In this document: piece by piece, positions 9,884-47,078 of the stretch
Layout of the letters: each line of letters begins with the position of its first letter
Position numbering within the stretch: position 1 is the first letter of the stretch
Program-made: the position numbers and the translations under genes
Source: Chloroflexota bacterium
Lineage (GTDB): Bacteria; Chloroflexota; Dehalococcoidia; GIF9; UBA5629
Length of the DNA: 64,000 nt
Reading direction: 5' to 3'
Assembly: GCA_037443085.1 (NCBI GenBank)
Contig: JBBIPA010000002.1
Coordinates: 13,739 to 77,738, forward strand
The notes under the pieces: model-generated
Databases searched by the model: none
The model's input: the letters and a program-made list of their open reading frames with translations, nothing else
What the model was told of the DNA's origin: nothing

Positions 9884-10292
9884 TACCGCGGCTTAGACCT
9901 AGCGGTCCCAGTTCCCTGAGCTGCTCCGTCATCTCGTTGACGATGGCGGCGAATCGGTCGCCTTCAGAAGCTGAGACCCAGTCCAGCCTGACTCGTTTAT
10001 CTTCTATGCCGAACTGGTTAAGCATTTTCTTGAGCAGGGGTATCCGGCGGGCTGCTTTAACATTACCTTCAAGGTAATGACATTCGCCGGGATGTCAGCC
10101 GCAGACCAGTACGCCATCTGCTCCTTTTTCGAAGGCTTTGAGGATAAAGGTAGGCTCGACGCGGCCGCTACACATCACCCGCACCACGCGCATATTGGGG
10201 GCATATTTCTTGCGGGAGGTGCCTGCCAGGTCAGCGCCAGCATAGGAACACCAGTTACATAAGAATCCTACAATCTTCGGCTCGTAGCTCAT
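9864..10292 (-). CDS. mvhD: MvhD, the hydrogenase delta subunit that bridges Hdr, selenocysteine-containing. The in-frame TGA at 10095-10097 is read as Sec.
   Basis: ORF-track 10095..10397 ends ...GADGVLVCG at a TGA. The same frame continues [48 protein letters not shown]... to TAA at 9864-9866, rebuilding the conserved MvhD GC(U)HPGxCHY core. The start is at [17 protein letters not shown] (ATG 10292), and the plus-strand tcat at 10289-10292 gives an ATGA overlap with the hdrA stop. Confidence 0.8.
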
Positions 10293-12250: not shown

Positions 12251-12264
12251 TCGCGCCTCCTTAA

Positions 12265-13143
12265 TTATTTGCTCAAATATCCAGCCAGGGCTTTTTGGGG
12301 TGAAACGATACATTTCCCCAGGCCTAAGTCTTTGCTTTCAATGCCGAATGCCACCCCCATGAGTTGAGTGAAGAATAATACGGGGATGTTGAATTTGGTG
12401 TTAAATTTGTTATTTACCTTGCTCTGGTAGACATCGAGGTTGGTCTGACAGAGCGGGCAAACAGTGACTATGCACTGAGCACCGTTGTTGGCAGCGCTGT
12501 TAAACAGTTTATGCAGCAAGCCCAGGGCAATATCTTCTTCAGATAAGATGAGCGACCCTCCGCAGCAGCGGGCTTTCAGGGGGAAGGGCACTGCCTCGGC
12601 TCCCAGGCTGGTAACTAAACCATCGAGTGATTTAGGAAATTCTGGGTGGTCGAAGCTGGGTCCCGGCCTGACAATCTGACAGCCATAGTATGGGGCTACC
12701 TTCAGCCCGCTGAGGTCTTTTTTCACCCGTGTCTTAACCTGCTCGGAGCCAATATCATTGACGAACACATCGAGGAGATGGCGCACCTTCACCGTGCCGT
12801 TATATTCCAGCTTGCCGGCTGCCAGTGCTTCTTTTACCTCACCTCTCAGTTCAGGATATTCTTTGAGGGCAGTGTTGGTTTTTATGAGGAGGACAAAGCA
12901 GGCGCTGCAGGGGGTGACCAGGTCAAAGCCTCTTTTCTCCGCCAGCGCCAGGTTGCGCGCTGAGCAGCAATAGGAAGCCAGTTCATCCACAGAAGAATAT
13001 GGCGTTGACCCGCAGCAGTTCCAATTCTCCAGCTCGATAAGTTCCACGTCCAGCGCTTTGGCCACGGCCTGGGCGGAACGGTCATAGGCCGTCGAGTTGC
13101 CATGGGCGGCAGAGCAGCCGGGAAAGTAGGTATAGTATTTCAT
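12265..13143 (-). CDS. hdrB: Heterodisulfide reductase subunit B (two CCG domains)
   Basis: Contains NWNCCGSTP and a second CCGGSL motif. 292 aa. Confidence 0.85.
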   Translation of the reverse strand: MKYYTYFPGCSAAHGNSTAYDRSAQAVAKALDVELIELENWNCCGSTPYSSVDELASYCCSARNLALAEKRGFDLVTPCSACFVLLIKTNTALKEYPELRGEVKEALAAGKLEYNGTVKVRHLLDVFVNDIGSEQVKTRVKKDLSGLKVAPYYGCQIVRPGPSFDHPEFPKSLDGLVTSLGAEAVPFPLKARCCGGSLILSEEDIALGLLHKLFNSAANNGAQCIVTVCPLCQTNLDVYQSKVNNKFNTKFNIPVLFFTQLMGVAFGIESKDLGLGKCIVSPQKALAGYLSK

Positions 13144-13721
13144 TATCGGGTTCCTCCTATTACGATGGCCTCAGCCTTGTCCAGGATGGCTTTAAGCTGG
13201 GCCTCTGCCTCCGGTTTCATTCTTTTGGCTTTGGGGGACAGTCGCCCGTGCCTCAGCAGGCTGAGTGCTTGAGGCAGCATCTTGATGGCGCGTAAGGGAT
13301 TGGTCAGCAGATAGTACCACGTCATGAAACCCATTTCCGGGACACTGCCGATGCTATAGACAAAGTCACTGAAGCTGCGATACATCTTCGGTGTGTAACT
13401 GCGCCCGCTGCTGACATTATTGCGCAATGCCAGGCATTCCAGCGTGTGCATCAGGTCTGTAGGCTTGATGCCCCGCGGACAGCGCACCGTGCACAGGTAA
13501 CAGGAGAGACAGAGCCAGGGTGAATGACTGGAGAGTACCTCGTCTCGCATGCCCGCCCGCGCCATGGCGATAAGTTGACGGGGCGTATAGTCCATCCTGG
13601 TGGCATTGGGACAGGATGCAGAACAGGTGCCACACTGGATGCAGAGCTTGACCACTTCACCGCCAGGGATGGCGCTGATTTCATTTACGAAATTAGTAGT
13701 GCCTTGCTTCTTTATTTCCAT
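13143..13721 (-). CDS. hdrC: Heterodisulfide reductase subunit C (two 4Fe-4S clusters)
   Basis: Carries the CIQCGTCSASCP and CLSCYLCTVRCP ferredoxin motifs. Its stop overlaps the hdrB start as TAATG. Confidence 0.85.
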   Translation of the reverse strand: MEIKKQGTTNFVNEISAIPGGEVVKLCIQCGTCSASCPNATRMDYTPRQLIAMARAGMRDEVLSSHSPWLCLSCYLCTVRCPRGIKPTDLMHTLECLALRNNVSSGRSYTPKMYRSFSDFVYSIGSVPEMGFMTWYYLLTNPLRAIKMLPQALSLLRHGRLSPKAKRMKPEAEAQLKAILDKAEAIVIGGTR

Positions 13722-26373: not shown

Positions 26374-28086
26374 CTAGTATTTCCTTTCTACTGGCTGCCA
26401 CATGGTTATGGAGACAGGGATGTATTCCAGTCTGGGACCTTTGGGCGTATAGTATGCCAGTGTATGCTTCAGCCAGTTAGCATCGTCTCTCTGTTTATAG
26501 TCTCGCCGGGAGTGAGCGCCGCGGGATTCGGTACGGGCTAATGCTCCGGCCACCACGATATCAGACAACTCCAGGACTGTGTCCGCCTCCAGGGCGTTGA
26601 TGAGGTCGGTATTATAAATGCGGCCGCGGTCCTTCACCTGAACATCGGCAAGGCGTTGCTTGTATTCCTTGATTTTCCTCGAGGCTTCTTCCAGCTCAGG
26701 GCCAGTGCGAAAGACGCCCACTTTGACGTCCATCATTTTTTGTAATTCAGACCGAATGGCATAGCTGCTCTCCTTGCCCGTAGGACTGAATCGGTTGAAA
26801 ACGCTGGCCTCTTCGTCCTTTAGCCTGGACTCGCTGGGCATGGGCGGGAACTCCTTCTGCTTCTTCACATATTCGGCAGCCTTCTCTCCAGTTATTCTGC
26901 CCCAGACCAGACACTCAGCAGTTGAGTTCGAACCCAGGCGATTGGCGCCGTGTAGCGACTCACAGGCAACTTCTCCCGCTGCCCAGATGCCAGGAATCGG
27001 TGTGGCGCCATCGATATTGGTGTGTATGCCGCCCATAGTATAGTGGGCGGCCGGGTGAACCGGGATCGGCTCCGATATCGGGTCAATGAAATTGAACTTT
27101 ATGGCGACCTCTCGAATCAGAGGCAGCCGTTCATTAATCGTGTCTGCGCCCAGATGGCGCAGGTCGAGATGTATGGCTTGCATGCCACCTCGTGCCGGGA
27201 AGCCCCTGCCTTCCTCGATTTCAGTCTTTTCAGCGCGGGCAACAATGTCACGGGGCGCCAGTTCCATCATTTTGGCGGCATATTTCTCCATGAACCTCTC
27301 GCCCTTATTGTTGTACAGGTAGCCGCCTTCACCACGGGCTGCCTCGGTAATCAAAATACCCGAGGGAACCAGTCCGGTAGGATGGAACTGGAGAAACTCC
27401 AGGTCTTTAATTGCTATGCCAGCCCGATACGCCATGCCCATGCCATCACCGGTGGCAGTGAGCGAATAGGTGGTGAAGCCAAACATGCGGCAGGCACCAC
27501 CGGTAGCTATAATCAGGGCTTTACTTTGCATGAAGAAGAATTCGCCGCTGGTTAAATCCCAGACGGTGATGCCGCGGAACACCCCGTTTTCGATGATGAG
27601 GGAGTGCACATAGCACTCATCATACCTGGCGACATTAGCATGTTTCTGCAGGGTATCATACAGGGTTTGCATTTCAAAAAAGCCGGTCTTATCAGCGGCG
27701 AAGGTAGCCCGATTATAGCTGTGGCCTCCGAAAGCTCGCTGGTTAACCCTGCCGTCGGCACGGCGCGACCAGGGAATTCCCCAGTGGTCCAGAAGCTTTA
27801 TCTCCTCAGGCATCGCCTGGACGAAGCGCATGACTACATCCTGGTCGCAGAGAAAATCACCGCCTCTTACCGTATCCCAGGCATGTAGTTCCAGGCTATC
27901 GCCTTCGTCCGGTTGTATCACTGCGGCGGTACCGCCTTCAGCGCAGACGGAATGGGCGCGCATCAGTTGCACTTTGGAAACGATAGCCACATCGGCTTCG
28001 GAGTTTTTTCGGGCTACTTCCACTGCTGCCCGCAGTCCTGCTATGCCGGCACCCATCACGATAATGTCATGCTTGAGCGTCCTCAT
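26374..28086 (-). CDS. sdhA: Succinate dehydrogenase / fumarate reductase flavoprotein subunit
   Basis: FAD-binding IIVMGAGIAGLRAA, the catalytic HPTG and HYTMGG motifs. The start is trimmed to MRTLKHD (ATG 28086), which forms an ATGA overlap with the fumA stop. Confidence 0.9.
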   Translation of the reverse strand: MRTLKHDIIVMGAGIAGLRAAVEVARKNSEADVAIVSKVQLMRAHSVCAEGGTAAVIQPDEGDSLELHAWDTVRGGDFLCDQDVVMRFVQAMPEEIKLLDHWGIPWSRRADGRVNQRAFGGHSYNRATFAADKTGFFEMQTLYDTLQKHANVARYDECYVHSLIIENGVFRGITVWDLTSGEFFFMQSKALIIATGGACRMFGFTTYSLTATGDGMGMAYRAGIAIKDLEFLQFHPTGLVPSGILITEAARGEGGYLYNNKGERFMEKYAAKMMELAPRDIVARAEKTEIEEGRGFPARGGMQAIHLDLRHLGADTINERLPLIREVAIKFNFIDPISEPIPVHPAAHYTMGGIHTNIDGATPIPGIWAAGEVACESLHGANRLGSNSTAECLVWGRITGEKAAEYVKKQKEFPPMPSESRLKDEEASVFNRFSPTGKESSYAIRSELQKMMDVKVGVFRTGPELEEASRKIKEYKQRLADVQVKDRGRIYNTDLINALEADTVLELSDIVVAGALARTESRGAHSRRDYKQRDDANWLKHTLAYYTPKGPRLEYIPVSITMWQPVERKY

Positions 28087-28928
28087 AGAATCGCCTCCTT
28101 GTGACGAGCAGCATGGCACTGCATATTAATGGCCAGTGGCATGCTGGCGATATGTGCGGGGAAGGTCTCAACATGAACCGCCAGCGCCGTGTTCCTGCCG
28201 CCGAATCCCTGAGGGCCTATGCCCAGAGCATTGATTCGTTTCAACAGCTCTTTCTCCAGTTCGGCGACCTCGGCATCGGGATTAGGCTCGCCCACCTTGC
28301 GCAGCAACGCCTTTTTGGCGAGCTGCATTGTTTTCTCGGCAGTGCCTCCGATGCCGACACCGACGATGATCGGCGGGCAGGGATTACTGCCAGCATCATC
28401 AACTGCCTTGACCACGGCGTCAATAATGCCCTGGCGGCCAGCCGCCGGCGTAAGCATGTGGAGGCGGCTCATGTTCTCGCTGCCGCCGCCTTTAGGCACC
28501 ACCATTATCTTTACTTTATCGCCGGCAACGATATCGGTGTGGATGATAGCCGGCGTATTGTCTTTAGTATTGACACGAGCCGAAAACGGCTGTTTCACCA
28601 TGGATTTACGCAGGTAGCCCTTCTCATAGCCATCCTTGACACCGTCATTAACGGCTTTATAGATATCACCGCCGACAAAGTGGGCATCCTGCCCTACTTC
28701 CAGGTAGACTACAGTTGCCCCGCAATCCTGGCAATAAGCCATCTGCTCCTCTTTAGCCAGCTTGGCATTATCCAGAATTTGGTCCAGAGTCTGCTGGCCT
28801 ATGGGCGATTCCTCGGTTTTACGTGCCTTTTTCAGGGCATCGAGGACATCTTCAGGAAGAAAAAAATTAGCTTCCTGACACAAGCGGGAGACCGTTTTGG
28901 TTACTTCTTTGACGTCGATTTCTCTCAA
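28083..28928 (-). CDS. fumA: Class I fumarate hydratase, alpha (N-terminal) subunit
   Basis: Fe-S hydro-lyase alpha subunit pattern (QDCGATVVYLEVGQDAHFVGG...). 281 aa. Confidence 0.85.
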   Translation of the reverse strand: MREIDVKEVTKTVSRLCQEANFFLPEDVLDALKKARKTEESPIGQQTLDQILDNAKLAKEEQMAYCQDCGATVVYLEVGQDAHFVGGDIYKAVNDGVKDGYEKGYLRKSMVKQPFSARVNTKDNTPAIIHTDIVAGDKVKIMVVPKGGGSENMSRLHMLTPAAGRQGIIDAVVKAVDDAGSNPCPPIIVGVGIGGTAEKTMQLAKKALLRKVGEPNPDAEVAELEKELLKRINALGIGPQGFGGRNTALAVHVETFPAHIASMPLAINMQCHAARHKEAIL

Positions 28929-28965
28929 TTCTATATGTCTCCTTTCTCGATAGTATTGTTATTGC

Positions 28966-30321
28966 CTAATCTTCAGGCGCCTTGGGAATAAGTCCTTTCT
29001 TCATCAGAACCTCGGTTGTTTCCCTGGCATTCTTAATCATTGCCTCAGCTTGCCTGGTAAGCTGCTCGCGGCTCGCCTTAATCCGGGCAACACCCTGCTC
29101 CTGGGCTTTCAAACCTACAGCCACCGCTTCACGAATGAATGCTTCCCATTCTGACATGGTTGGGGCGATATTATCTTCGCTGATGCCGCGGTCTTCGGCG
29201 CATTTCGCCAGCTCATAGGCAGCAGCCAGACACATCTCATCAGTGATTGTCCTGGCTTTCACATCCAGTGTGCCACGGAATATCGCTGGAAAGCCAGTGG
29301 AGTTATTGACCTGATTGGGGAAATCAGACCTGCCAGTGGCCACAATCCTGGCTCCTGCTTCTTTTGCTTCCCATGGCCAGATTTCAGGAATAGGGTTGGC
29401 ACAGGCGAACAGGACGGAGTCCTTGGCCATTGCCTTCACCCAATCTTGAAGAATGACTCCGGGGCCCGACTGCGACAGCGAGATGCAGACATCCGCTCCT
29501 TTCAAAGCTTCTGCTATATCACCACTCCTCTTATCCGGGTTGGTTCGTTGGCACAGGTCCCATTTATACGGATTCTCTTTCTGTTTCTCTTCTAAATCTT
29601 TTCTGCCGATGTGTAGTATACCCTTGCTATCTACGACGAGAGTATTTTCCGGCTTAAAACCGTCAGCGAAAAGCAATCTCAATATGGCCACGTTAGCCGC
29701 ACCTATCCCATTAACAGTTAGTTTAACCTTATCTTTTCTCTTGCCCACAATCTTCAGGGCATTGATGAGACCGGCAAGCGTAACGGCAGCGGTACCCTGC
29801 TGGTCGTCATGCCATACTGGAATATTCGCCTCTGCTCTCAGCCTGTCAAGAATATAGAAGCATTTAGGGTTGGCGATGTCCTCCAGGTTGATGCCGCCAA
29901 AGGAAGGTTGCAGCCATTTCACTGCATTGATGAACTGCTCCGGGTCCTTGGTATCGAGACAAATAGGTACAGCATCCACGCCGCCAAGGTATTTGAACAG
30001 CAATGCCTTACCCTCCATCACTGGCATCGCTGCCTCTGGCCCGATGTCACCTAAGCCCAGAACTCTGGTGCCATCAGAGACCACTGCCACCGTATTCCAT
30101 TTATTAGTATGCTCGTAGACCTTTTCCTTGTCTGCTTTTATGTCCTTACAGGGTTCGGCAACTCCCGGAGTGTACCATATGGCAAAATCGTTGAAGTCAC
30201 GGACGCAGCACTTGGGAACGGTTTGCATCTTTCCCCGATAGTAGGGATGCAATTTCAGAGCATCCTTTGCCGGCCTTTGTGCTTTGGCCAGCAACTCCTC
30301 TTTAGTTACTTTTTTAGACAA
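28966..30321 (-). CDS. NAD(P)-dependent malic enzyme (malate dehydrogenase, oxaloacetate-decarboxylating)
   Basis: Malic-enzyme N-terminal and NAD-binding domains (YTPGVAEPC...VVSDGTRVLGLGDIG...TVNGIGAANVAI). Confidence 0.85.
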   Translation of the reverse strand: MSKKVTKEELLAKAQRPAKDALKLHPYYRGKMQTVPKCCVRDFNDFAIWYTPGVAEPCKDIKADKEKVYEHTNKWNTVAVVSDGTRVLGLGDIGPEAAMPVMEGKALLFKYLGGVDAVPICLDTKDPEQFINAVKWLQPSFGGINLEDIANPKCFYILDRLRAEANIPVWHDDQQGTAAVTLAGLINALKIVGKRKDKVKLTVNGIGAANVAILRLLFADGFKPENTLVVDSKGILHIGRKDLEEKQKENPYKWDLCQRTNPDKRSGDIAEALKGADVCISLSQSGPGVILQDWVKAMAKDSVLFACANPIPEIWPWEAKEAGARIVATGRSDFPNQVNNSTGFPAIFRGTLDVKARTITDEMCLAAAYELAKCAEDRGISEDNIAPTMSEWEAFIREAVAVGLKAQEQGVARIKASREQLTRQAEAMIKNARETTEVLMKKGLIPKAPED

Positions 30322-31405
30322 CGCAGTCCTCCTTAAGTTTATTTATCACAGCATCAGCAACTTGTGAGGTACCTGCTGCACATTGTCTTCGTTTCGGTTT
30401 TAAGTCATAGGTGACATGTTTGCCCTCAGCAATCACTTTGACTATGGCCTGTTCCAATCTATCCGCAGCCTCTTTCTCTCCGAGATGACGTAACATCATC
30501 TCTCCAGAGAGCATCATCGCCAGGGGATTGACCTTGTTCTGCCCCGCATATTTAGGAGCACTGCCATGGGTGGGCTCGAAAACTGCTGCCTTCTCCCCGA
30601 TGTTGGCCCCAGGGGCCAACCCCAGCCCACCCACTAACCCGGCACAAAGGTCGGAAACTATATCACCATAGAGATTGGGCAAAACGATAACATCAAAAGA
30701 TTGAGGATTTCGCACCAGGCGCATGCACAGAGCATCAATAACTACATCTTCAAACTCTATATCGGGATATTCTTTAGCTACCTCCCGGGCAACAACCAGG
30801 AAAAGACCATCGGAAAACTTGAGTATATTCGCTTTATGACCGGCGGAGACCTTCTTCCTTTTATTGGCTCTGGCATACTCGAATGCGAACTTCACAATTC
30901 GCCTCGAGCCATATTCAGAAATCATTTTGATGCTGAACCCGGAGTCCTGGTTTACCTTTGTTCCACTAGAATCCACGATAAGGTCAATAAGCCTGCCAGC
31001 TTCCGGTGTTCCTTTGGCGAATTCAATACCGGCATAAAGGTCCTCAGTATTCTCTCTGACCACGACGATATCTACATCGCTGAAAGGTGTCGGCGCGCCA
31101 CGATATGTCTTACAGGGGCGGATACAGGCATAAAGGTCAAGGCTTCTGCGGAGAGCAACGTTAACGCTGCGGAAACCGGTACCTATAGGAGTAGTAACGG
31201 GGCCCTTGAGGGCTACCTTGTTCCTCTTTATCGAGGAGAGGACTTCATCAGGGAGAGGTGTGCCGAATTGAGTCTGTGCCTTCTCACCAACTATCCCCGT
31301 ATCCCAGTTAAATTCGACTCCAGTTGCTTCTAAAACCCTTCGAGTTGCCTCGGTAACCTCAGGCCCTACACCATCCCCGGGAATCAAGGTTACCTTATAT
31401 GGCAT
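30314..31405 (-). CDS. icd: Isocitrate dehydrogenase (NAD(P)-dependent, beta-decarboxylating dehydrogenase family)
   Basis: GFRSVNVALRRSLDLYACIRP and KANILKFSDGLF resemble IDH, not LeuB. 363 aa. Confidence 0.75.
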   Translation of the reverse strand: MPYKVTLIPGDGVGPEVTEATRRVLEATGVEFNWDTGIVGEKAQTQFGTPLPDEVLSSIKRNKVALKGPVTTPIGTGFRSVNVALRRSLDLYACIRPCKTYRGAPTPFSDVDIVVVRENTEDLYAGIEFAKGTPEAGRLIDLIVDSSGTKVNQDSGFSIKMISEYGSRRIVKFAFEYARANKRKKVSAGHKANILKFSDGLFLVVAREVAKEYPDIEFEDVVIDALCMRLVRNPQSFDVIVLPNLYGDIVSDLCAGLVGGLGLAPGANIGEKAAVFEPTHGSAPKYAGQNKVNPLAMMLSGEMMLRHLGEKEAADRLEQAIVKVIAEGKHVTYDLKPKRRQCAAGTSQVADAVINKLKEDCVV

Positions 31406-31422
31406 ACCTCATGCCCTCATGG

Positions 31423-31935
31423 TCAGGTTTGCAGCTTGAAATCACCATGTTTTTTGATATATGGAATAAGCCCGCCTTCAGCTAATATATCAAGCATTAC
31501 TGGCGGGATTTTGCCGAACGTAAGCTGAATACCTTTGGTCAGGTTAGCGATTTTACCTGCCGATAAGTTTACTCCTACTGTGTCCCCTTCGTCAATCTTA
31601 TCGGTATCACAAATGAGCACTGGCAGTCCCTGATTGATGGCGTTCCTGAAGAAAATTCGAGCTACGGACTTCGCCAGAACAGCGCTGACACCAGCCATTT
31701 TAATTACCAGCGGGGCATGCTCCCTGCTGGAGCCAAGGCCAAAATTTTTTCCAGCAACGATAAAATCTCCCGGCTGCACTCTGGTGGCGAAGTTCTTATC
31801 GGCATCCTCCATGACATGCCTGGCAAGCTCAGGCAGGTTGCTCCGCAGGTGGGCGTATCTCCCCGGAATGATGAGGTCGGTAGAGATATTATCGCCGAAC
31901 TTAAATGCTCTGCCCTTCAATTCCGTGACTGACAT
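31423..31935 (-). CDS. leuD: 3-isopropylmalate dehydratase / aconitase family small subunit (LeuD-like)
   Basis: 170 aa with a swivel-domain pattern. Its function (LeuD versus aconitase small subunit) cannot be told from sequence alone. Confidence 0.75.
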   Translation of the reverse strand: MSVTELKGRAFKFGDNISTDLIIPGRYAHLRSNLPELARHVMEDADKNFATRVQPGDFIVAGKNFGLGSSREHAPLVIKMAGVSAVLAKSVARIFFRNAINQGLPVLICDTDKIDEGDTVGVNLSAGKIANLTKGIQLTFGKIPPVMLDILAEGGLIPYIKKHGDFKLQT

Positions 31936-33203
31936 TACCTTACCTTTCTCGGGTCAGTGATTTCGCCGGTGATGGCTGAAGTGGCGGCAGTGGCTGGGCT
32001 GGCCAGATAGATTGAAGATTCAGGATTACCCATCCTGCCCCTGAAATTGCGATTCGCTGTGGACAGGCAAACCTCGTTATCACCCAGCACACCCTGGTGC
32101 AGACCCAGACAGGCAGCGCAGCCCGGGGGCACCACTATTGCCCCCGCTTTGAGAAGCGACTGGATATAACCGGCTTTTATGGCGTCGGTGAATATCTGCC
32201 TTGATGCCGGAGCCACAATCAGCCTCACATTGGGGTGGCAGGTCCTGTTCTTAAGAATAGTGGCGGCTACTGCCAAATCCTCAAGTCGCCCATTAGTACA
32301 GGTGCCGATGAAGACCTGATTGAGCTTGATACCAGCCAGCGTACGTGCTGGAGCCACGTTGTCCACAGCATGAGGCATGGCTACCATCGGCTCCAGGCTG
32401 GAAGCATCAATAGCAATGGTTTGCTCGTAGCTGGCATCGGCATCAGCCGCCAGCGCCCGGTACTTATTGCTCCTCCTCTGAGCGGCTAAATATTTCCTGG
32501 TGACGTTATCGCTGGGGAAGAGGCCGACCTTGGCGCCGACCTCGATTGCCATATTGGCTATGGTCAGGCGCTGGGCAATGGTCATCTTTGCCACAGCTTC
32601 GCCCTGAAATTCCAGAGATTTATAGGTGGCGCCATCAGCTCCCAGTTGTCCGGCGATGTAGAGCACCAAATCCTTGGCAGTAACCCATCCGGTGAATCCG
32701 CCGCTGACAGTAATTTTGAAGCTCTCGGGCACGCGGAACCAGGTCTTGCCCAGGGCAAAAGCCACGGCAACATCGCTGGAACCCATGCCTGTAGCAAATG
32801 CTCCCAGGGCGCCACCGGTTACCGTGTGGGAGTCAGCACCGACAATAATATCGCCGGGATTAGCGAACGTCTCGGCGACTATCTGGTGACAGACGCCGCT
32901 GCCGCCTTCGAAGAGCACACAGCCAGACTCTCTGGCAAATGTGCGCATAAACTGCTGGTCATTGGATAGCTGGCTGTTGGGGCTGGGAACAGCGTGGTCA
33001 ATGAACAACACCGTTTTCTGCGGGTTGGCGAGCTTATTGAGCCCGCTTTGCTGGAACTGCCTCAGGGTGAGAGGTCCGGTGGTATCCTGAACAAAAGCCA
33101 GGTCTACCGGGGCGATGACTATATCTCCAGCTCGGGCATCGGCTCCTGATTTCTCGCTTAGGATTTTTTCACTGAGGGTCTTCCCCATGTAAACTCTAAC
33201 CAA
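31935..33203 (-). CDS. leuC: 3-isopropylmalate dehydratase / aconitase family large subunit (LeuC-like)
   Basis: Aconitase-family Fe-S ligand region (GTCTNGR...PGCAACLG). 422 aa. Confidence 0.8.
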   Translation of the reverse strand: MVRVYMGKTLSEKILSEKSGADARAGDIVIAPVDLAFVQDTTGPLTLRQFQQSGLNKLANPQKTVLFIDHAVPSPNSQLSNDQQFMRTFARESGCVLFEGGSGVCHQIVAETFANPGDIIVGADSHTVTGGALGAFATGMGSSDVAVAFALGKTWFRVPESFKITVSGGFTGWVTAKDLVLYIAGQLGADGATYKSLEFQGEAVAKMTIAQRLTIANMAIEVGAKVGLFPSDNVTRKYLAAQRRSNKYRALAADADASYEQTIAIDASSLEPMVAMPHAVDNVAPARTLAGIKLNQVFIGTCTNGRLEDLAVAATILKNRTCHPNVRLIVAPASRQIFTDAIKAGYIQSLLKAGAIVVPPGCAACLGLHQGVLGDNEVCLSTANRNFRGRMGNPESSIYLASPATAATSAITGEITDPRKVR

Positions 33204-35124
33204 TCACAGCCAGAACGTCACCCGCCCCCACCCTGGCACCGGGGCTGAATTTTATCGCCTTCATTTTACCAGATACTGGCGACTCGATGACATTTTCCAT
33301 CTTCATCGCTTCCAGGACGACGATGCCGACGCCGGCTTGGACCTCGTCGCCTTCCTGCACCAGATAACGAATAATGGTGCCGGGAATCGGTGCGGCAATC
33401 GGCGTTTCTCCTGCGGCAACCTCTACTTTCGGTGGAGGAGCAGCTTCAGTTTTCCTGGTGGGTTGCTTCGGGGACTCCTTCTCGGTTGCCGGACTTGCTG
33501 GCGTTGGTGCATAAACCGGAGGAGCTGCGAACGAGGCCGTGCCGCCTGCAGGTTCCACCTCGACTTTATAGTATTCATCGCCGACATAGACATTGAATGA
33601 CCGAAGGGCCTTCCCCTTTATCGGTGCTTTCATATCGACCCTCTCTACCACCTTGCCAGACCTGGCTTTGGCGATAAGTTCATCTTCCCGCTTTGCATCT
33701 TCAAGGGTCTTCGCCCTGGTTTCTGCGGGTGGTTGTTCCAGTCCATATTTCCACTTAAGAAAGCGCAGCCCTGTCGTAGGATAAAGGGCGTAAACCAGCA
33801 CATCACCTATGTCCCTGGCAATGCCTTTCGTTGCCTCCTTTGCCTTGGGCAATTCCGGCTCGAGGATATCAGCCGGTCGGCAGGTGATAGGCTTATCACC
33901 ACGGGAATACCCCTTGAGGATAATCTTCTGTACCGAGGGGTCTATCGGCGCTGGCAGCTTGCCGTATAGGCCATAGGCATAATCCTTGGTCTGGTCAGAA
34001 ACCATTTTGTATCTGCCGAAGAGGACATTTAGCACCGCCTGTGCCCCGATTATCTGGCTGGTAGGAGTGACCAAGGGTGGGTAACCCAGCTCCTTGCGGG
34101 TGCGAGGCAGTTCAGCGTAGACTTCCTGGATACGGTGAATGGCATTGGCTTCTTTCAACTGAGCTACCATATTGGTAAACATGCCACCGGGAATCTGATG
34201 CCCCAGCACGCCAGTATCAATCACTGACATCTTGGTGGTATCCAGAAAATCACGATACTTCGGCGCAATAGACTCATAGTATTCGCCCAGCTTAAGCAAA
34301 TGCCCCAGATTCAGTCCGGTATCCCGCGGCGTACCCTGCAAAGCCACTACCATGGGCTCTATCGCGGGATGAGAGGTACGCAGGGCAAAGGGAGCGATGC
34401 AGGTATCAATAAGGTCAACGCCGGCTTCCGCTGCTTTCAACAGGCTCATGCAGGCCATGCCGCTGGTAAAGTGACTGTGCAAATCCACCGGAATTTTGAG
34501 AGCCTGCTTTAAAGCCTTAACCAAATTGTAGGCATCGTCAGGAGCGATAAGTCCTGCCATATCTTTAATGCACAGGCTGTCGGCTCCCATATCCTGAATA
34601 ATCAGGGCTTTCTGCACATAGTAATCAATGGTATACACCTGACCGCCCAGCTTGGGCTCGGTCAGCGAGTAGGTCAACGTCCCCTGGATATGCTTGCCCC
34701 TCTCCTTTATTGCCTTAAAAGCGGTAATAAAATTGCGCTCATCGTTCACCGCATCAAAAACACGAAAGACATCGATGCCGCAATCGGCAGCGTGATGCAC
34801 AAAAGCGGTGACTACATCATCGGCATAGTTGCGGTAGCCCACCAGGTTCTGCCCGCGCAACAGCATTTGCAGCCGGGTATCCGGCATCAGTTTCTTTAAA
34901 ATGCGAATTCGCTCCCAGGGGTCTTCGTTTAGGAAACGGGTCATCACGTCAAAGGTGGCACCGCCCCACATCTCCATAGACCAGAACCCCGCCTTGTTCA
35001 TTTCCGGCGCGATCGCTTCCATGTCAGCAGTGCGCATACGGGTAGCAAATAATGATTGATGCCCATCACGAAAGGTGAGGTCAACAACCTTTACTGGATT
35101 GTCAGCTTTTTTCCTCGGTGCCAT
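33196..35124 (-). CDS. Biotin-dependent carboxyltransferase 5S subunit fused to a biotin carboxyl carrier domain (PycB/OadA/transcarboxylase 5S-like)
   Basis: N-terminal VDLTFRDGHQSL TIM-barrel motif and a C-terminal biotinyl domain EAMKMEN (AMKM). Confidence 0.8.
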   Translation of the reverse strand: MAPRKKADNPVKVVDLTFRDGHQSLFATRMRTADMEAIAPEMNKAGFWSMEMWGGATFDVMTRFLNEDPWERIRILKKLMPDTRLQMLLRGQNLVGYRNYADDVVTAFVHHAADCGIDVFRVFDAVNDERNFITAFKAIKERGKHIQGTLTYSLTEPKLGGQVYTIDYYVQKALIIQDMGADSLCIKDMAGLIAPDDAYNLVKALKQALKIPVDLHSHFTSGMACMSLLKAAEAGVDLIDTCIAPFALRTSHPAIEPMVVALQGTPRDTGLNLGHLLKLGEYYESIAPKYRDFLDTTKMSVIDTGVLGHQIPGGMFTNMVAQLKEANAIHRIQEVYAELPRTRKELGYPPLVTPTSQIIGAQAVLNVLFGRYKMVSDQTKDYAYGLYGKLPAPIDPSVQKIILKGYSRGDKPITCRPADILEPELPKAKEATKGIARDIGDVLVYALYPTTGLRFLKWKYGLEQPPAETRAKTLEDAKREDELIAKARSGKVVERVDMKAPIKGKALRSFNVYVGDEYYKVEVEPAGGTASFAAPPVYAPTPASPATEKESPKQPTRKTEAAPPPKVEVAAGETPIAAPIPGTIIRYLVQEGDEVQAGVGIVVLEAMKMENVIESPVSGKMKAIKFSPGARVGAGDVLAVIG

Positions 35125-35158
35125 GATTGCTTAACTCCATATTTAGATTTCATCTACA

Positions 35159-35413
35159 CTAAAAACCATTACCCCTGCCTCCTCCTGCTCCACGGCTCGC
35201 CCATGCTGTCATCAATTTCTCAAGACCGCAATACCGCCACAGTCCCCTCTCAGGTAGAGGTGTTAGCTGACGGGCATTATTCCGAGCGCTCATCTGTGCC
35301 CGCTGTCCTAAAAGCCGCCAGGCATTTATTCCAGAAGCGGACTGGCTGCTCTCTTCCTGTTGAATATAGAGGGCAACCGCCCCCATGATGGCAGTCAGCA
35401 GTTTTGGCTCCAT
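35159..35413 (-). CDS. Small hypothetical protein between the two carboxyltransferase genes; possibly an accessory subunit
   Basis: 84 aa, same strand, 14 nt after the 12S gene stop, with a weak GAGGA RBS. Confidence 0.3.
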   Translation of the reverse strand: MEPKLLTAIMGAVALYIQQEESSQSASGINAWRLLGQRAQMSARNNARQLTPLPERGLWRYCGLEKLMTAWASRGAGGGRGNGF

Positions 35414-35426
35414 TCAGTACTTATCC

Positions 35427-36977
35427 TCACAGAGGAATATTGCCGTGCTTTTTGGGTGGGTTGGTATCGACCTTGTTCTTAAGCATTTCCAGAGCTTTAA
35501 TCAGCTTGGGTCTGGTAGTTCGCGGGTCGATGACATCATCAAGATAGCCTTTGCCCGCAGCCACATAAGGGTTGGCAAATTTCTCCCGATAGTCATCGAT
35601 CAGCTTTTGCCGGGTTTCGGCGGGATTTTCTGATTTATCAATAGCATCTTTGAACACGATATTCACGGCGCCGTCAGGCCCCATAACTGCAATTTCAGCT
35701 GTAGGCCAGGCGTAGTTGATATCGCCGCGCAGGCTCTTGCTGCTCATAACCACATAGGCGCCGCCGTAAGCCTTGCGGGTAATCACGCTTATTTTGGGCA
35801 CGGTAGCCTCAGCATAGGCATAGAGAAACTTGGCTCCGTGCCGGATGATTCCTCGATACTCCTGGTCGGTGCCCGGCATATATCCCGGCACATCAACGAA
35901 AGTGATCACAGGAAGATTAAAACAATCGCAAAAGCGGACAAACCTGGCACCTTTATCCGAGGCGTCGACATCAATGACGCCGGCATTGAATGAAGGCTGC
36001 TGCGCCACTATGCCCACACTATGGCCGCCCAGCCTGGCAAATCCTACGATAAGGCTGCGACCAAACCTGCTGTGGGCTTCCATGAAGTCGCCGTTGTCCA
36101 CGACTTTGCCAATGACTTTCTTCATATCGTACACCTTGTTCGGGCTGTCTGGAATAATGGTAAGCAGTTCCTCATCCATGCGGTTAGGGTCGTCTCCCGT
36201 AGCCACATATAGCGGCTCCTCCCTGTTATTCTGGGGCAGGAAGCTCAGCAACTGCCGCACCATCTCCAGGCATTGCTGGTCATTATCAGCTACAAAATGG
36301 CAGTTGCCGGTCTTGGTAGCATGGGTCATAGCACCACCCAGCTCCTCGAAATCCACCTCTTCGCCAGTGACCGATTTAATCACGGCGGGGCCAGTTATAT
36401 ACATTTGACCTGTGCCTTTGACCATGAAAACAAAGTCGGTTATTGCTGGAGAGTACACGGCACCGCCAGCGCATGGTCCCATGACCACCGATATCTGCGG
36501 CACGACTCCGGAGAACAGGGTATTGCGGGTGAAAATATCGCCGTAGCCCACCAGGCTATCCACGCCTTCCTGGATACGGGCACCGCCCGAGTCGAGCAAG
36601 CCGATAACCGGTGCGCCAACTTTGGCTGCCATGTCCATAACCTTGCAGATTTTTTCTGAAGCTACTTTCGATAAGGAGCCACCAAAGACGGTAAAGTCTT
36701 GAGAGAATACAAAAGCGTCTCGGCCATTGATTTTTCCGTAGCCGGTAACCGCAGCATCACCCGGCGTTTTTTGTTGCTCCAGCCCAAAATCAGTGCAGCG
36801 ATGGACAGCAAATTGGTCTACTTCTTCGAAAGTGCCGGGGTCGAACAGCAGCCCGATGCGCTCCCTGGCGGTGAGCTTGCCCTTCTGGTGCTGAGTTTCG
36901 GTGCGTTTTGCCCCTCCGCCAGCCAGAGCTTGCTGCCTCAATTTCTCTAATTCAGTTACCTTGTCTTTGGTTCCCAT
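35427..36977 (-). CDS. Acyl-CoA carboxyltransferase 12S subunit (propionyl-CoA carboxylase beta / methylmalonyl-CoA carboxyltransferase family)
   Basis: Carboxyl_trans domain pattern. The start is moved to MGTKDKVTELEKL (ATG 36977), which has a GAAGGAAG RBS. Confidence 0.85.
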   Translation of the reverse strand: MGTKDKVTELEKLRQQALAGGGAKRTETQHQKGKLTARERIGLLFDPGTFEEVDQFAVHRCTDFGLEQQKTPGDAAVTGYGKINGRDAFVFSQDFTVFGGSLSKVASEKICKVMDMAAKVGAPVIGLLDSGGARIQEGVDSLVGYGDIFTRNTLFSGVVPQISVVMGPCAGGAVYSPAITDFVFMVKGTGQMYITGPAVIKSVTGEEVDFEELGGAMTHATKTGNCHFVADNDQQCLEMVRQLLSFLPQNNREEPLYVATGDDPNRMDEELLTIIPDSPNKVYDMKKVIGKVVDNGDFMEAHSRFGRSLIVGFARLGGHSVGIVAQQPSFNAGVIDVDASDKGARFVRFCDCFNLPVITFVDVPGYMPGTDQEYRGIIRHGAKFLYAYAEATVPKISVITRKAYGGAYVVMSSKSLRGDINYAWPTAEIAVMGPDGAVNIVFKDAIDKSENPAETRQKLIDDYREKFANPYVAAGKGYLDDVIDPRTTRPKLIKALEMLKNKVDTNPPKKHGNIPL

Positions 36978-37286
36978 GGCACACTTCCTTCTCGATGAAC
37001 TCGGTATGGGATTGGCCGTCAGGCCGCTTGTTATTCTAGCACAATAAGCAATGCTTTGGCTAATGTAAAACAGCTTCAAAGCGGCTTACTCGAATGCCAC
37101 TTATATGTCTTTTTATTATCTAAATCCCGTTAATGTTACGAAAAGCATCAGCAATCAAGCAATATACTTCTATTAATGGCATTTTACTTGCTGTATCCTG
37201 GCCACATTCGCAATGCACAGGCTTATCGACCATAGCGAAAGGTACCGAGAGGCGACATTTATATCTATGGTACAATAGTCATCCAG

Positions 37287-44180: not shown

Positions 44181-44209
44181 TTGACAAATTTCCCCAAAAG
44201 TCATATAAA
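44181..44209 (+). promoter_or_regulatory. Near-consensus sigma-70 promoter (TTGACA, 17 nt spacer, TATAAA) that places the transcription start at about ATG 44216
   Basis: An exact -35 hexamer, a 17 nt spacer and a 5/6 -10 match. The first ATG lies 7 nt after the -10 element. Confidence 0.5.
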
Positions 44210-44323
44210 CGAAATATGCGTTATATTAAGCTGCTCCTGTACGCAGCTATGGCATCGCTGCTGTCAATCATTGCCTTGCCCACACCAGCAGACGGTGCTG
44301 GCTGAGGTCCCAGTGGATGTCCT

Positions 44324-45598
44324 GTGTCAGGTCTGACACCAAACACCGGCTGGGTGGGTAGCTCGACCACCATGATCGTCTCCAGCAACAACTTCCCCAT
44401 AGAAGGTGACTATAAAATCATGTGGGGCACATCCCCCAAATTCGACGATGGCAAAGCTATCATAGTCAAAGAAGGCACCTCTCCCAGAGGCAACCAAGTC
44501 GTAACCGTCAGTTTTCCGATTCCTGAAGCTGCCTTCGGGATGTACTACGTAGGATTCGTCCGCCCTGGCCGTGATGACCATACCATATTCTCATTCAATG
44601 TCCTGCCCCGTCTGAGCGTCCAGCCTGTTTCGGCGTCACCTGGCAACACCGTCACCATCTATGGCACCGGCTTCCCCGCCAACGATGCTATCTCTTTTAC
44701 TTTCGATAGTAAGTCCACTGAAGCCAATACCACCGCCAATAGTAATGGTAGCTTCACCACGGGTTTTACCATTCCCGGCGCCGTTGCTGCGGAGCACCAG
44801 ATATCAGCTAAGTCATCAAAGTTAACCAGTACTCTCGCCCCGGCCATAATGGTGGTGAAACCGGGGATTGCCGTCAACCCTCAATCGCCTCAAGCTGGTG
44901 GCAATGTCACTATTACCGGGCGTGGTTTTGCTGCCAAGGTGCTGATAGCCATCAAGTACAATGAGCATGTTATTACGAACTCGCCAACTACCGATGACAC
45001 GGGTAACTTCACCTATAGCTTTGCGCTACCTCCAAGCGCTGAAACAGGAATAAGATTAGTGGCTACCGACCCCCTGGGCAATACCACCACATTCTCGGTT
45101 GGAAGTAAGACGCCATCGTCGCCACCACCACCATTACCACCGTCTCCAATGCCGGGAGCACCCCAGAGCCCCGTCACGACAACGGGCAAAACGCTGCCCA
45201 AGCCAGCAACAGTAGCGCCCAAAGAAGAAAGCTTCGGTTTATTTGGTGCCCAGGAGGTGACCTTTGTCTGGACACAGGCATCCTCTTTCCCCGGTAACAT
45301 CACCTATACCCTGGAAGTGTCCGGCAACCATAAATTCCAGTCGGCTAAGAAAGTGTCTGGCATTGCCCAGACCAACCACACCCTTAAGCTGGAGGCAGGC
45401 ACCTATTACTGGCGCGTTAAAGCGGTTGGCAGCCTGGGCAATGAAAGTGAGTGGGCTAACTCGCGGTACAGTTTCAAAGTAGGCTCGCTGCCAGTCTGGC
45501 TGATTGTCATCGGAGTCATTATTTATCTCGTCATCTTCTGGCTGCTCGTCCGAACACTGCTGCGCCGGCGAAATCGTGACCCTTACTACGATTACTAA
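44324..45598 (+). CDS. Cell-surface protein with Ig-like/FN3-like repeats and a C-terminal TM anchor. The conservative call is a GTG start at 44324; the in-frame upstream signal-peptide ORF (44216-44302, ending at a TGA) is discussed in the findings.
   Basis: Repeated beta-rich modules (NVTITGRGF, TVTIYGTGF), a Pro-rich linker PSSPPPPLPPSPMP, and a C-terminal anchor LPVWLIVIGVIIYLVIFWLLV followed by RRRNRD. Confidence 0.6.
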   Translation: MSGLTPNTGWVGSSTTMIVSSNNFPIEGDYKIMWGTSPKFDDGKAIIVKEGTSPRGNQVVTVSFPIPEAAFGMYYVGFVRPGRDDHTIFSFNVLPRLSVQPVSASPGNTVTIYGTGFPANDAISFTFDSKSTEANTTANSNGSFTTGFTIPGAVAAEHQISAKSSKLTSTLAPAIMVVKPGIAVNPQSPQAGGNVTITGRGFAAKVLIAIKYNEHVITNSPTTDDTGNFTYSFALPPSAETGIRLVATDPLGNTTTFSVGSKTPSSPPPPLPPSPMPGAPQSPVTTTGKTLPKPATVAPKEESFGLFGAQEVTFVWTQASSFPGNITYTLEVSGNHKFQSAKKVSGIAQTNHTLKLEAGTYYWRVKAVGSLGNESEWANSRYSFKVGSLPVWLIVIGVIIYLVIFWLLVRTLLRRRNRDPYYDY

Positions 45599-45731
45599 AG
45601 CCAGAGCCTATCCCCACCATACCTTAACAACCACTACTTCCCCACGATTTCAATCACCTTGTTCTTGCTGCCCAGACCGCTGACCACACTGACAGAAGTT
45701 TGCGGAACTTTGAAATGGTCTGCCAGTATCT

Positions 45732-47078
45732 TTATGAAACCACCTCTCCCCACGAGCCATCCTGGTATGTCTTGGTTAGCTTTGCTGGCAGGATGGTGTT
45801 GCTTATCTGTTGGGGACTTTCGGCGAATACCCTGATATAGTTGCCAGTGAGTCCTGAATAGAGGCTGCTGCCCTGGTGAACCTCCGTCTCCCAGAGCACT
45901 GGCATAGTCCGTCCCAGAAATCGCTCCTGAAAGCTGCGGGAGCTTTCTTTTGACAGGGCCAGCATCCGCAGACTGCGCTCTTTCTTCAGTTTATCGTTAA
46001 CCTGCCCCTTCATTTCAGCCGCCGCTGTTCCTGGGCGTGGGGAATAAGTGAAGACATGAATAGCGGCAAAGCCGATATCACGGTAAAATCGGTAGCTTTC
46101 CTCATGCTCGGCAGCACTTTCACCGGGGAAGCCCACCATGATGTCGGTGGTGATTGCCACAGCGGGCACAGCCTTCCTGATAAAAGACACTGCCTTTATG
46201 TAATCGGCGAGAGAATACTGGCGCTTCATCCGTTTCAGCACCGTATCGCTGCCGCTCTGCAATGCCAGATGAAAATGATGGCAGAGTCGCTGGTTCTGCC
46301 ACAAACCGAGCAGGTCTTCAGAAATCTCCTGCGGCTGCAGAGAGGAAAGGTGCAGCCGCGGTATCTCTGTCTCGGCTAAAATACGATGAACTAGCTGCTT
46401 GAGGTCAATACCGTTATAGTGATAAGCGCCGATCTTGGTTCCGGTAAGTATCACTTCCTTGTAGTCGGCGGCGACTTTAGCTTTCACTGTAGCGATGATG
46501 TCTTCCGCCGGCAGGCAAGATTCGCTGCCCCGCACCAGGGGCACAATGCAGTAGGCACAGAAATCATCGCAGCCGTCTTGAATTTTCACGAAGCTGCGAA
46601 CCCGGAGCGAGCTATCTAAACCCCGCTCCCCTGTTAAGCAACTGGATTTAGCGTCAAGCGTCCTCTTCACCAGTTGCGGTATATTCATCTTTTGCTCATT
46701 GCCGATAATCAGGTCAACGCCTATCTCAGATAAATCCTGCGGTGCTCTTTCGGCATAGCAGCCGGTAACCACTATCAGCGCATCGGGGTTATTTTTCCGC
46801 AGCAGCCGAAGCAGATGACGCGATTTCCGGTCGGCAATGTGGGTGACCGTGCAGGTATTGAGAATACAGACATCAGCGTTGGTACCACTGGCTATACCAA
46901 AACCAGCTTCAGCAAACTGAGCCGCCAGAAGCTCCGTCTCCGCCTGGTTGAGCTTGCATCCCAGAGTTTGAAATGTCACCGCAGGTTTGCGCGCCATGAT
47001 TACATCAAAGAGATTATATTGATGCGCCATTTGCCAGGTCAACTCAGGAGGTAGTGGCCTGTTGTAATAAGGAAACAT
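45732..47078 (-). CDS. Radical SAM methylthiotransferase (MiaB/MtaB/RimO family; MtaB-like)
   Basis: An MTTase N-terminal domain (FQTLGCKLNQAE), a radical SAM CxxxCxxC (CDDFCAYC), and a C-terminal TRAM-like region. Confidence 0.85.
   Translation of the reverse strand: MFPYYNRPLPPELTWQMAHQYNLFDVIMARKPAVTFQTLGCKLNQAETELLAAQFAEAGFGIASGTNADVCILNTCTVTHIADRKSRHLLRLLRKNNPDALIVVTGCYAERAPQDLSEIGVDLIIGNEQKMNIPQLVKRTLDAKSSCLTGERGLDSSLRVRSFVKIQDGCDDFCAYCIVPLVRGSESCLPAEDIIATVKAKVAADYKEVILTGTKIGAYHYNGIDLKQLVHRILAETEIPRLHLSSLQPQEISEDLLGLWQNQRLCHHFHLALQSGSDTVLKRMKRQYSLADYIKAVSFIRKAVPAVAITTDIMVGFPGESAAEHEESYRFYRDIGFAAIHVFTYSPRPGTAAAEMKGQVNDKLKKERSLRMLALSKESSRSFQERFLGRTMPVLWETEVHQGSSLYSGLTGNYIRVFAESPQQISNTILPAKLTKTYQDGSWGEVVS

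Follow-up and report, generated by a model that had tools for sequence, protein, structure and literature searches.

To our knowledge nearly all known bacterial selenoproteins are redox enzymes in which selenocysteine (Sec) is buried in the active site. FdnG and the [NiFeSe] hydrogenase, two extracytoplasmic examples, bear cofactors, are exported in folded form through the Tat pathway and hold Sec on a metal centre. In the selenocysteine insertion sequence (SECIS) of Escherichia coli fdhF the G and U of the apical loop contact SelB, and a bulged U lies in the 5' strand of the upper stem. More generally, bacterial SECIS (bSECIS) elements have been described by a loop of 3-9 nt, an upper stem of 4-16 bp and a G in the first two loop positions, together with a distance of 16-37 nt from the UGA and a minimum free energy (MFE) of at most -7.5 kcal/mol (PMC13188914). 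As far as the BSepDB account goes, Dehalococcoidia include very selenoprotein-rich members (BSepDB, PMC13326102). Here we describe a gene for an immunoglobulin-like (Ig-like) surface protein in 64,000 nt of contig JBBIPA010000002.1, from a Chloroflexota bacterium of the class Dehalococcoidia (this whole stretch is called the window below), whose reading frame is crossed by a TGA codon. Positions 44216-45598 very probably form a single gene, decoded through SelB and a SECIS, for an exported and membrane-anchored Ig-like selenoprotein. The support is comparative and comes from the conservation of the TGA, the existence of Cys homologues, a covarying hairpin, Sec use in the same genome and the domain layout.

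On the plus strand, ATG 44216 opens a run of 29 codons (44216-44302) for a secretory (Sec-pathway) signal peptide, MRYIKLLLYAAMASLLSIIALPTPADGAG, which is followed by TGA at 44303-44305. Beyond the TGA the same frame runs on as GPSGCPVSGLTPNTGW and continues up to TAA 45596-45598, so that the full coding sequence (44216-45598) has 460 codons plus the stop, with the TGA as codon 30 read as Sec (U30). The peptide across residue 30 reads (D)GAG-U-GPSGCPVSGLTPNTGWVGSSTTMIVSSNNFPIEGDYK. Its Cys35 (TGT, 44318-44320) is the only Cys of the protein and the partner in a U-x4-C motif, and U30 and Cys35 are the only chalcogen residues of the window protein. A hairpin GUGUCA-GGUC-UGACAC occupies 44324-44339 (arms 44324-44329 and 44334-44339, loop 44330-44333); it begins 18 nt past the UGA, and its loop begins at the 25th nucleotide, leaving 24 nt between UGA and loop. 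A preliminary description of this DNA, made from the letters alone, had pointed to the signal-peptide frame running in phase through the TGA, to a Cys near position +5 from the presumed Sec and to a hairpin about 20 nt past the UGA, and all three are present.

A protein search with the read-through product returned 110 relatives, and 160 loci were fetched from GTDB species genomes and JGI metagenomes and translated in the frame upstream of each match. After this, 65 distinct Sec-type and 24 distinct Cys-type loci from Dehalococcoidia metagenome-assembled genomes (MAGs) and metagenomes were compared. At the site all 65 Sec-type loci carry an in-frame TGA and never TAA or TAG, and in every homologue a hydrophobic leader of 26-29 residues precedes it in the same frame while the conserved ectodomain follows. 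Four further close orthologues (L161-L164), found by exact-protein look-up and up to 83% identical, have the TGA as well. The TGA is kept across homologues of only 32-59% identity, among them the syntenic orthologues L001, L002 and L035, which share a SpoU-type methylase upstream and a MiaB-like enzyme downstream; both neighbours are housekeeping genes and give no functional hint. The consensus at the site is P-x-A-V-(K/N)-A-(D/A/G)-G-U-(V/G/A)-(G/E)-G-x-C, with the partner Cys following U after four residues in 63 of the 65 loci and after five in the other two.

At the aligned position a single clade of 24 distinct loci has TGC or TGT instead, giving C-x4-C, and the Cys-type G-C-AGGK-C aligns with the Sec-type G-U-xxxx-C. 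This clade is a distant Dehalococcoidia group of full-length proteins with 32-35% identity, in which the stretch ...VDGQG-C-AGGK-C-GVTTTLTPNSG stands where the window has ...ADGAG-TGA-GPSG-C-PVSGLTPNTG. Nearly all of the closer relatives (37-83% identity), by comparison, are annotated some 40-50 residues short at the N-terminus, from M, L or V codons that lie within conserved sequence. Haft and Gwadz (bioRxiv 10.1101/2022.07.06.499078) use three working criteria for a new selenoprotein family, namely at least 10 members, TGA without exception (100%) and sequence similarity that extends across the site; the present family has at least 10 members, TGA in 100% of its Sec-type loci, similarity through the site and Cys homologues of equal length. 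The orthologue comparison that the preliminary description had proposed thus gave TGA in all 65 loci and the four close orthologues, and Cys in one clade. Some variation around the motif was also seen: L149 (about 1000-1045) has a TGA with no partner Cys (U-GVVDYG...), L036 and L086 show U-x5-C, and the Cys-type L109 and L136 have a longer Gly-rich spacer, C-x8-C. The paralogs L034 and L038 lack Cys.

The hairpin past the UGA separates the two forms of the gene. A stem of at least 5 bp closing a GU-containing loop of 3-6 nt that starts 20-27 nt past the UGA is found in 63/65 Sec-type and 0/24 Cys-type loci, against a background of 6.3% among 19,737 control in-frame positions of the same genes; with a stem of at least 6 bp and the same loop rule the figures are 55/65, 0/24 and 2.3%. 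Each of the two Sec-type exceptions has one stem mismatch. When GU was not required the hairpin again appeared in 63/65 Sec-type loci, 60 of these 63 having a GU loop compared with 15% of background hairpins. Unconstrained MFE folds of 63 nt from each TGA place a local hairpin at the same position in nearly every Sec-type locus and in none of the Cys-type loci. Set against the published bSECIS constraints, the window element taken as a whole lies within them (GGUC loop, 6-bp stem, 24-nt spacing), and the apical hairpin alone falls inside all four in 48/65 Sec-type loci, 0/24 Cys-type loci and 2.4% of the background.

The stems themselves differ widely, there being 27 distinct ones (e.g. GUGUCA, GGCGCCA, CCCCGA, CUCCAC, CCCCAC, GCCCGCA and UCCCGG) with loops of (A)GUU(A), GGUC or GUU. 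Two-sided changes occur at all six inner pairs (134 cells versus 53 +/- 6 when shuffled), and the covariation score is 0.91 as opposed to 0.275 for shuffled columns and at most 0.26 with the partners slid. For this purpose an alignment anchored on the hairpin, with N-padded loops and artificial constant flanks, replaced plain MAFFT alignments, in which loops of unequal length fell out of register and no single structure emerged. The stem is kept over encoded peptides as different as PVSGLTP, PGVSLTP, SSTVSGE, PEVIGE and PTVVGE. Between the window and its closest relative, L161 (83% protein identity), a compensated frameshift lies inside the hairpin at 44318-44341, changing CCU GGU GUC AGU UUG in L161 to CCU GUG UCA GGU CUG in the window; the peptide goes from P-G-V-S-L to P-V-S-G-L and the loop from GUU to GGUC, with the stem GUGUCA/UGACAC retained. 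By these comparisons it is the RNA rather than the peptide that is conserved at the hairpin. The resemblance to the fdhF SECIS that had been proposed for the window thus holds in so far as this is a covarying SECIS-type hairpin, found in the TGA forms only, which shares its GGUC loop with fdhF.

The source genome also has other genes that use Sec. An hdrC-hdrB-hdrA-mvhD operon lies on the minus strand at window positions 9867-13721, with internal TGA codons in HdrA (11668-11666, context TLDCSA-U-ILTPK) and in MvhD (10097-10095, context VLVCG-U-HPGECH), both of which are known Sec positions, that of HdrA being the classic one; these are the two Sec genes that the preliminary description had placed in the hdr operon. 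Both are followed by hairpins with 7-8 bp stems and a loop starting 24 nt past the UGA, a spacing one nucleotide off that of the surface-protein gene. The loop of the MvhD hairpin (UGA) has no GU. Among 79 related HdrA genes the codon at the Sec site is TGA in 28, TGC or TGT in 50 and TGG in one. We infer the decoding machinery from the HdrA and MvhD Sec genes in the window. In MAGs with a Cys-type surface protein HdrA is also of the Cys type (6/6), while in those with a Sec-type surface protein TGA is found in 4/8 HdrA copies, which is suggestive only of a link between the Cys-type surface protein and loss of Sec use.

Several points weigh against a selenoprotein and have to be set beside this evidence. 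The homologues are related to one another, so that the counts given above are not counts of independent events, and anchoring the alignment on the hairpins inflates the share of paired cells, a bias from which the controls (Cys clade and background) are free; these controls were relied on most. Taken singly, the window sequence is unimpressive: folds of 43-130 nt around the TGA give dinucleotide-shuffle z scores of -0.3 to -1.0, no better than chance, and the apical hairpin alone is weak (-5.9 kcal/mol). The significance of the hairpin derives from the comparison with homologues only, a single sequence being unable to decide it. Its upper stem is fully paired and lacks the bulged U of fdhF, and Rfam gave nothing at gathering scores over the whole window. 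No selA, selB, selC or selD gene was found within the 64 kb. A tRNA scan of the window likewise returned no tRNA and no tRNA-Sec, and Pfam searches of ten large window ORFs for selA, selB and selD yielded TCA-cycle and carboxylase genes, HdrB and HdrC instead.

Finally, the case is built on sequence comparison, which leaves room for the best-surviving rival. Here the UGA would be read through without selenium, by a near-cognate Trp, Cys or Arg tRNA under stimulation by the hairpin, and a stem-loop after a stop codon can indeed promote read-through in some systems. We give this only a slim chance. It would not account for Cys being the one alternative residue among the homologues at position 30, to the exclusion of Trp and Arg, nor for a hairpin with the geometry and G/U loop of a SECIS. 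The spacing of this hairpin is also close to that found in HdrA and MvhD of this genome, and the distribution of Cys-type and TGA-containing HdrA among the MAGs follows the form of the surface protein to the extent described above.

A second rival divides the locus into two translation units: an upstream ORF of 29 codons closed by the TGA, and the surface protein, which would begin on its own at GTG 44324 or further on and leave the cell by another route. The GTG exists, ORF finders call the gene from it or from later ATGs, and in L162 and L163 the 29-residue piece is called as a gene of its own. These called starts, however, lie inside conserved sequence, and the peptide between the TGA and GTG 44324 is itself conserved. 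In 49/65 homologues the stretch from the TGA to the conserved Cys contains no ATG, GTG or TTG, nine have none within 50 codons, and an ATG within 50 codons of the TGA is missing from 45/65 loci. In every case the upstream ORF encodes a signal peptide in frame with the rest, the Cys-type homologues are single uninterrupted ORFs of the same layout, and no Shine-Dalgarno sequence precedes GTG 44324. A start at the GTG, which the preliminary description had kept as an alternative, is on these grounds very unlikely, and we rank it slightly behind selenium-free read-through.

Its other alternative, a recently inactivated gene, is refuted, as is a sequencing error: apart from the stop codon itself nothing speaks for a pseudogene, the same TGA recurs, at 32-83% protein identity, in 65 loci and four close orthologues that were assembled independently, coding constraint is evident on either side of it and the ORF is otherwise intact, so we regard the chance as practically nil. 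The same verdict applies to a genome-wide reassignment of TGA (genetic code 4 or 25), as TGA serves as an ordinary stop in about 9 of the 39 long window ORFs (the surface-protein gene itself ends in TAA) and the internal TGAs that were found are those of HdrA and MvhD. A third selenoprotein, the reading that the preliminary description had preferred, is in this way supported by the conserved TGA, the Cys clade and the covarying hairpin.

For the SECIS-decoded gene we envisage the following course of expression. A strong sigma-70-type promoter would give a leaderless or nearly leaderless mRNA, on which the ribosome would translate the 29-residue signal peptide and meet the UGA at codon 30. The stem-loop directly past the UGA (apical part 44324-44339) would then work as a bacterial SECIS and recruit SelB with Sec-tRNA(Sec), Sec would be inserted, and translation would go on to the TAA that ends at 45598. 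The product would be exported and its signal peptide cleaved a few residues before Sec; a C-terminal helix would hold it in the membrane beneath a stalk of four Ig-like domains, and the flexible, membrane-distal N-terminal tail would bear the sole Sec and the sole Cys (U-x4-C). SelB binding, the transcription start, the cleavage site and the function of the tip are the steps of this scheme that we infer. Around the apical hairpin an extended stem-loop (44309-44354) is predicted from the window sequence alone, with a lower stem CCCAGU/GCUGGG and a middle stem UGU/ACA; the whole element with these stems comes to -10.9 to -21.0 kcal/mol, the fold given here being the one at -21.0 kcal/mol.

The promoter is the part of this scheme that can be followed through the family. 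A -35 hexamer TTGACA (44181-44186) and a -10 hexamer TATAAA (44204-44209), both read from the sequence, are separated by a 17-nt spacer, and the second stands 6 nt ahead of ATG 44216. The near-consensus TTGACAA-N17-TATAAA is found again in 44/64 Sec-type and 20/23 Cys-type loci, ending 6-9 nt short of the start codon, and its conservation in both clades supports a transcription start at about ATG 44216, as had been suggested when this promoter was first pointed out. A consensus promoter scan of the window did not list the site, because the scan requires T at position 6 of the second hexamer. Judged from this spacing, the mRNA is probably leaderless or nearly so. The start codon after the conserved promoter is ATG or GTG, with no Shine-Dalgarno sequence, and the fixed frame of the promoter produces a pseudo-peptide LDKAQARGYKI in upstream translations.

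The protein product is a modular stalk. Its ectodomain (44333-45487) comprises three Ig-like domains, a Pro-rich linker (residues 297-324; 45104-45187) and a membrane-proximal FN3-like domain, and is followed at 45488-45595 by a C-terminal transmembrane (TM) helix (45488-45550) and a cytoplasmic tail, RTLLRRRNRDPYYDY, that is basic and rich in Tyr; the family alignment shows both to be conserved. Pfam TIG (PF01833) matches residues 134-199 with 26.6 bits (cut-off 20.9) and Big_6 matches residues 230-291 with 21.5 bits, which is under its cut-off of 27.6, while NCBIfam assigned no family and gave only sub-threshold Ig-like matches. A weak, sub-threshold NikL match on the Cys-type homologue P0066 proved to be merely an Ig-like domain. 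The AlphaFold model of P0066 (mean pLDDT 82) has a signal helix, a flexible segment, four beta-sandwich domains and a C-terminal TM helix (residues 417-446), and in it C31 and C36 lie in a low-confidence tail (pLDDT <50) ahead of the first Ig domain. A Foldseek search of this model against the PDB returned generic strings of Ig, FN3 and macroglobulin domains (complement C3/C5, DSCAM) and no functional lead. The picture that emerges from the model is of a type I membrane protein with the U-x4-C pair on its membrane-distal tip, and the Ig-like ectodomains and C-terminal anchor that had been read from the sequence are borne out by the TIG match, the four domains and the anchor helix.

Signal peptidase probably cuts after ...TPA, going by the -3/-1 rule. 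The mature protein would then carry Sec at about residue 5 in the window gene and at residue 3 in most homologues (...AVKA|DG-U); the preliminary description was thus right that Sec lies just inside the mature protein, but its figure of two residues in does not hold with this cleavage site. We also considered a lipoprotein with Sec as the lipidated residue and rejected it, since the consensus P-x-A-V-(K/N)-A-(D/A/G)-G has no lipobox ([LVI][ASTVI][GAS]-C), charged K and D separate the hydrophobic core from U, and position -3 holds no Leu-type residue; cleavage by signal peptidase I at an AxA-type site fits better. A thioredoxin-fold CxxU or UxxC motif was rejected as well: the spacer has four residues, or five in the two exceptional loci, and not two, there is no Trx-like Pfam match, and the motif lies in a tail that is unstructured in the model.

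As to what the tip does, our best guess is that selenolate and thiol make up a reactive pair, which would either form a selenenylsulfide or chelate a soft metal or a sulfur species outside the cell. Candidate roles would include selenenylsulfide redox exchange, chelation of soft metals or metalloids, and carriage of sulfur or polysulfide. By analogy, a catalytic or ligand-binding tip seems likelier than a purely structural cross-link, because it is in keeping with the use of Sec elsewhere; our confidence in any specific biochemical role is low.

Among the GTDB and JGI loci fetched, the family is confined to Dehalococcoidia-type MAGs, with 2-3 Sec-type copies in several genomes (e.g. CAZQRP, CAZFIM, CAWGAF and CAVZKR). 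In a rough midpoint-rooted neighbour-joining tree the Cys-type loci form a single clade (23/23) that branches from within the Sec lineages, which suggests that Sec is old in the family and may have been replaced once by Cys. Between the window and MAG CAVZKR the surface protein is 59% identical and HdrA 93%; the ectodomain evolves fast by this comparison, while the TGA, the Cys and the hairpin persist.

The larger of the paralog groups in this family always lies divergently beside a conserved phage-like block, upstream of the surface-protein gene, that encodes a small HTH protein, an SPP1-type portal, an HK97/SU10-type major capsid protein and an adaptor (L245:1-6737 and L247:1-6741, also L003-L006, L009, L025, L034, L128, L131 and others), downstream of which are a protein of about 1166 residues and a CARDB protein. 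The portal is 60-85% identical across 44 loci from very different Dehalococcoidia, including a D. mccartyi MAG, and only about 22% identical to any GenBank phage portal. The block looks like a domesticated, vertically inherited capsid-forming element, perhaps resembling a gene transfer agent; none is present in the 64-kb window. There, the surface-protein gene is convergent with a MiaB-like gene (45732-47078, minus strand), their ends lying about 130 nt apart. In the orthologous loci L161-L163 and L246 a 73-residue gene of the PF02594 family sits in the gap before the MiaB-like gene, and no such ORF was noted in the window gap (45596-45732). Elsewhere in the window, a minus-strand run at 26374-37079 encodes central metabolism: a fumarate reductase/succinate dehydrogenase flavoprotein, fumarase, malic enzyme, an isocitrate/isopropylmalate dehydrogenase, large and small subunits of the aconitase family, a pyruvate/oxaloacetate carboxylase subunit and a carboxyltransferase.

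The decoding mechanism proposed here is standard for bacteria. The novelty appears to lie in the protein family, and in the placement of Sec on the exported, unstructured N-terminal tip of an Ig-like stalk. No curated NCBIfam or Rfam model matched the protein or the RNA element above cut-off; a permissive Rfam scan of 44280-44400 (E up to 10) gave only chance microRNA or snoRNA matches. Our search for literature on surface, Ig-like or signal-peptide selenoproteins of Chloroflexota or Dehalococcoidia found nothing relevant, with a prior listing in BSepDB or in Haft and Tolstoy 2025 (mSystems) being possible. In the public gene calls that we retrieved, the window gene and its Sec-type homologues are truncated, without signal peptide and motif and sometimes with a stray 29-residue ORF, and none bears a selenoprotein name. 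Reading the TGA as Sec gives back a single exported protein of full length and enlarges the Dehalococcoidia selenoproteome by one family.

These organisms have a protein envelope in place of a peptidoglycan wall. Tentatively, and with slightly more doubt than belief, we propose that Dehalococcoidia display selenocysteine on their surface: multi-copy Ig-like stalks (2-3 paralogs per MAG) would present a flexible U-x4-C tip at which selenol chemistry takes place outside the cell (soft metals or metalloids being captured, sulfur or polysulfide being handled, or thiol/selenol redox exchange taking place), with Sec ancestral and the main paralog a fixed neighbour of the domesticated phage-like capsid/portal block. 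If true, this would be a previously undescribed class of non-enzymatic, surface-displayed bacterial selenoproteins. The position of Sec on the tip of a surface stalk points to selenium chemistry where the cell meets its surroundings in anoxic sediments and aquifers. The Sec clades with their matched Cys counterpart, together with the very clear SECIS series and its many natural stem variants, also make a ready system for the study of SelB recognition in Chloroflexota and bear on why Sec is kept at the site.

How the locus stands to described systems can now be set out, beginning with the RNA. The fdhF SECIS, whose sequence we verified in 5,419 E. coli genomes, is like the window element a coding-region stem-loop directly past the UGA; the two have an identical GGUC apical loop, share the strings CAGGUCUG and CACCAA, and both have spacings within the 16-37 nt range. 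They differ in that the loop lies 24 nt past the UGA in the window and 18 nt in fdhF, and in that most family members have an (A)GUU(A) loop and not GGUC. By analogy the window element is predicted to work like that of fdhF, yet it is not a sequence-level member of the fdhF type. The HdrA and MvhD elements of the window are closer at hand, being in the same genome, presumably served by the same SelB, and alike in having a hairpin loop 24 nt past the UGA; HdrA further shares the Sec/Cys polymorphism among relatives. These two proteins, however, are redox enzymes of the cytoplasm whose Sec belongs to known active-site motifs, whereas the Sec of the surface protein would sit in an unstructured tail, and the exported protein that bears it resembles no known enzyme.

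Among proteins, the Cys-type homologues (P0066 and P0071-P0078, annotated as 'IPT/TIG domain-containing protein' or 'hypothetical protein') are the nearest counterparts, with the same promoter, signal peptide, four-domain ectodomain and anchor, but with C-x4-C in place of U-x4-C, without the hairpin and at 32-35% identity to the window protein. SaoB and SaoX (bioRxiv 10.1101/2022.07.06.499078) offer the best parallel for a selenoprotein outside the cytoplasm: they too are predicted to be extracytoplasmic, have a signal peptide and pair Sec with Cys, and they too were missed by annotation, with the gene split at the TGA, and recognized by the same criteria. They are, in contrast, ABC-transporter substrate-binding folds with CU or TU motifs in the pocket, and their genes belong to an operon of nine, while the surface protein is a monocistronic Ig-like stalk with U-x4-C on a flexible tip and a C-terminal helix as its anchor. 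Unlike FdnG and the [NiFeSe] hydrogenase, finally, the surface protein has a signal peptide of the secretory (Sec-pathway) type, no cofactor motif, and its selenocysteine at the extreme N-terminus.

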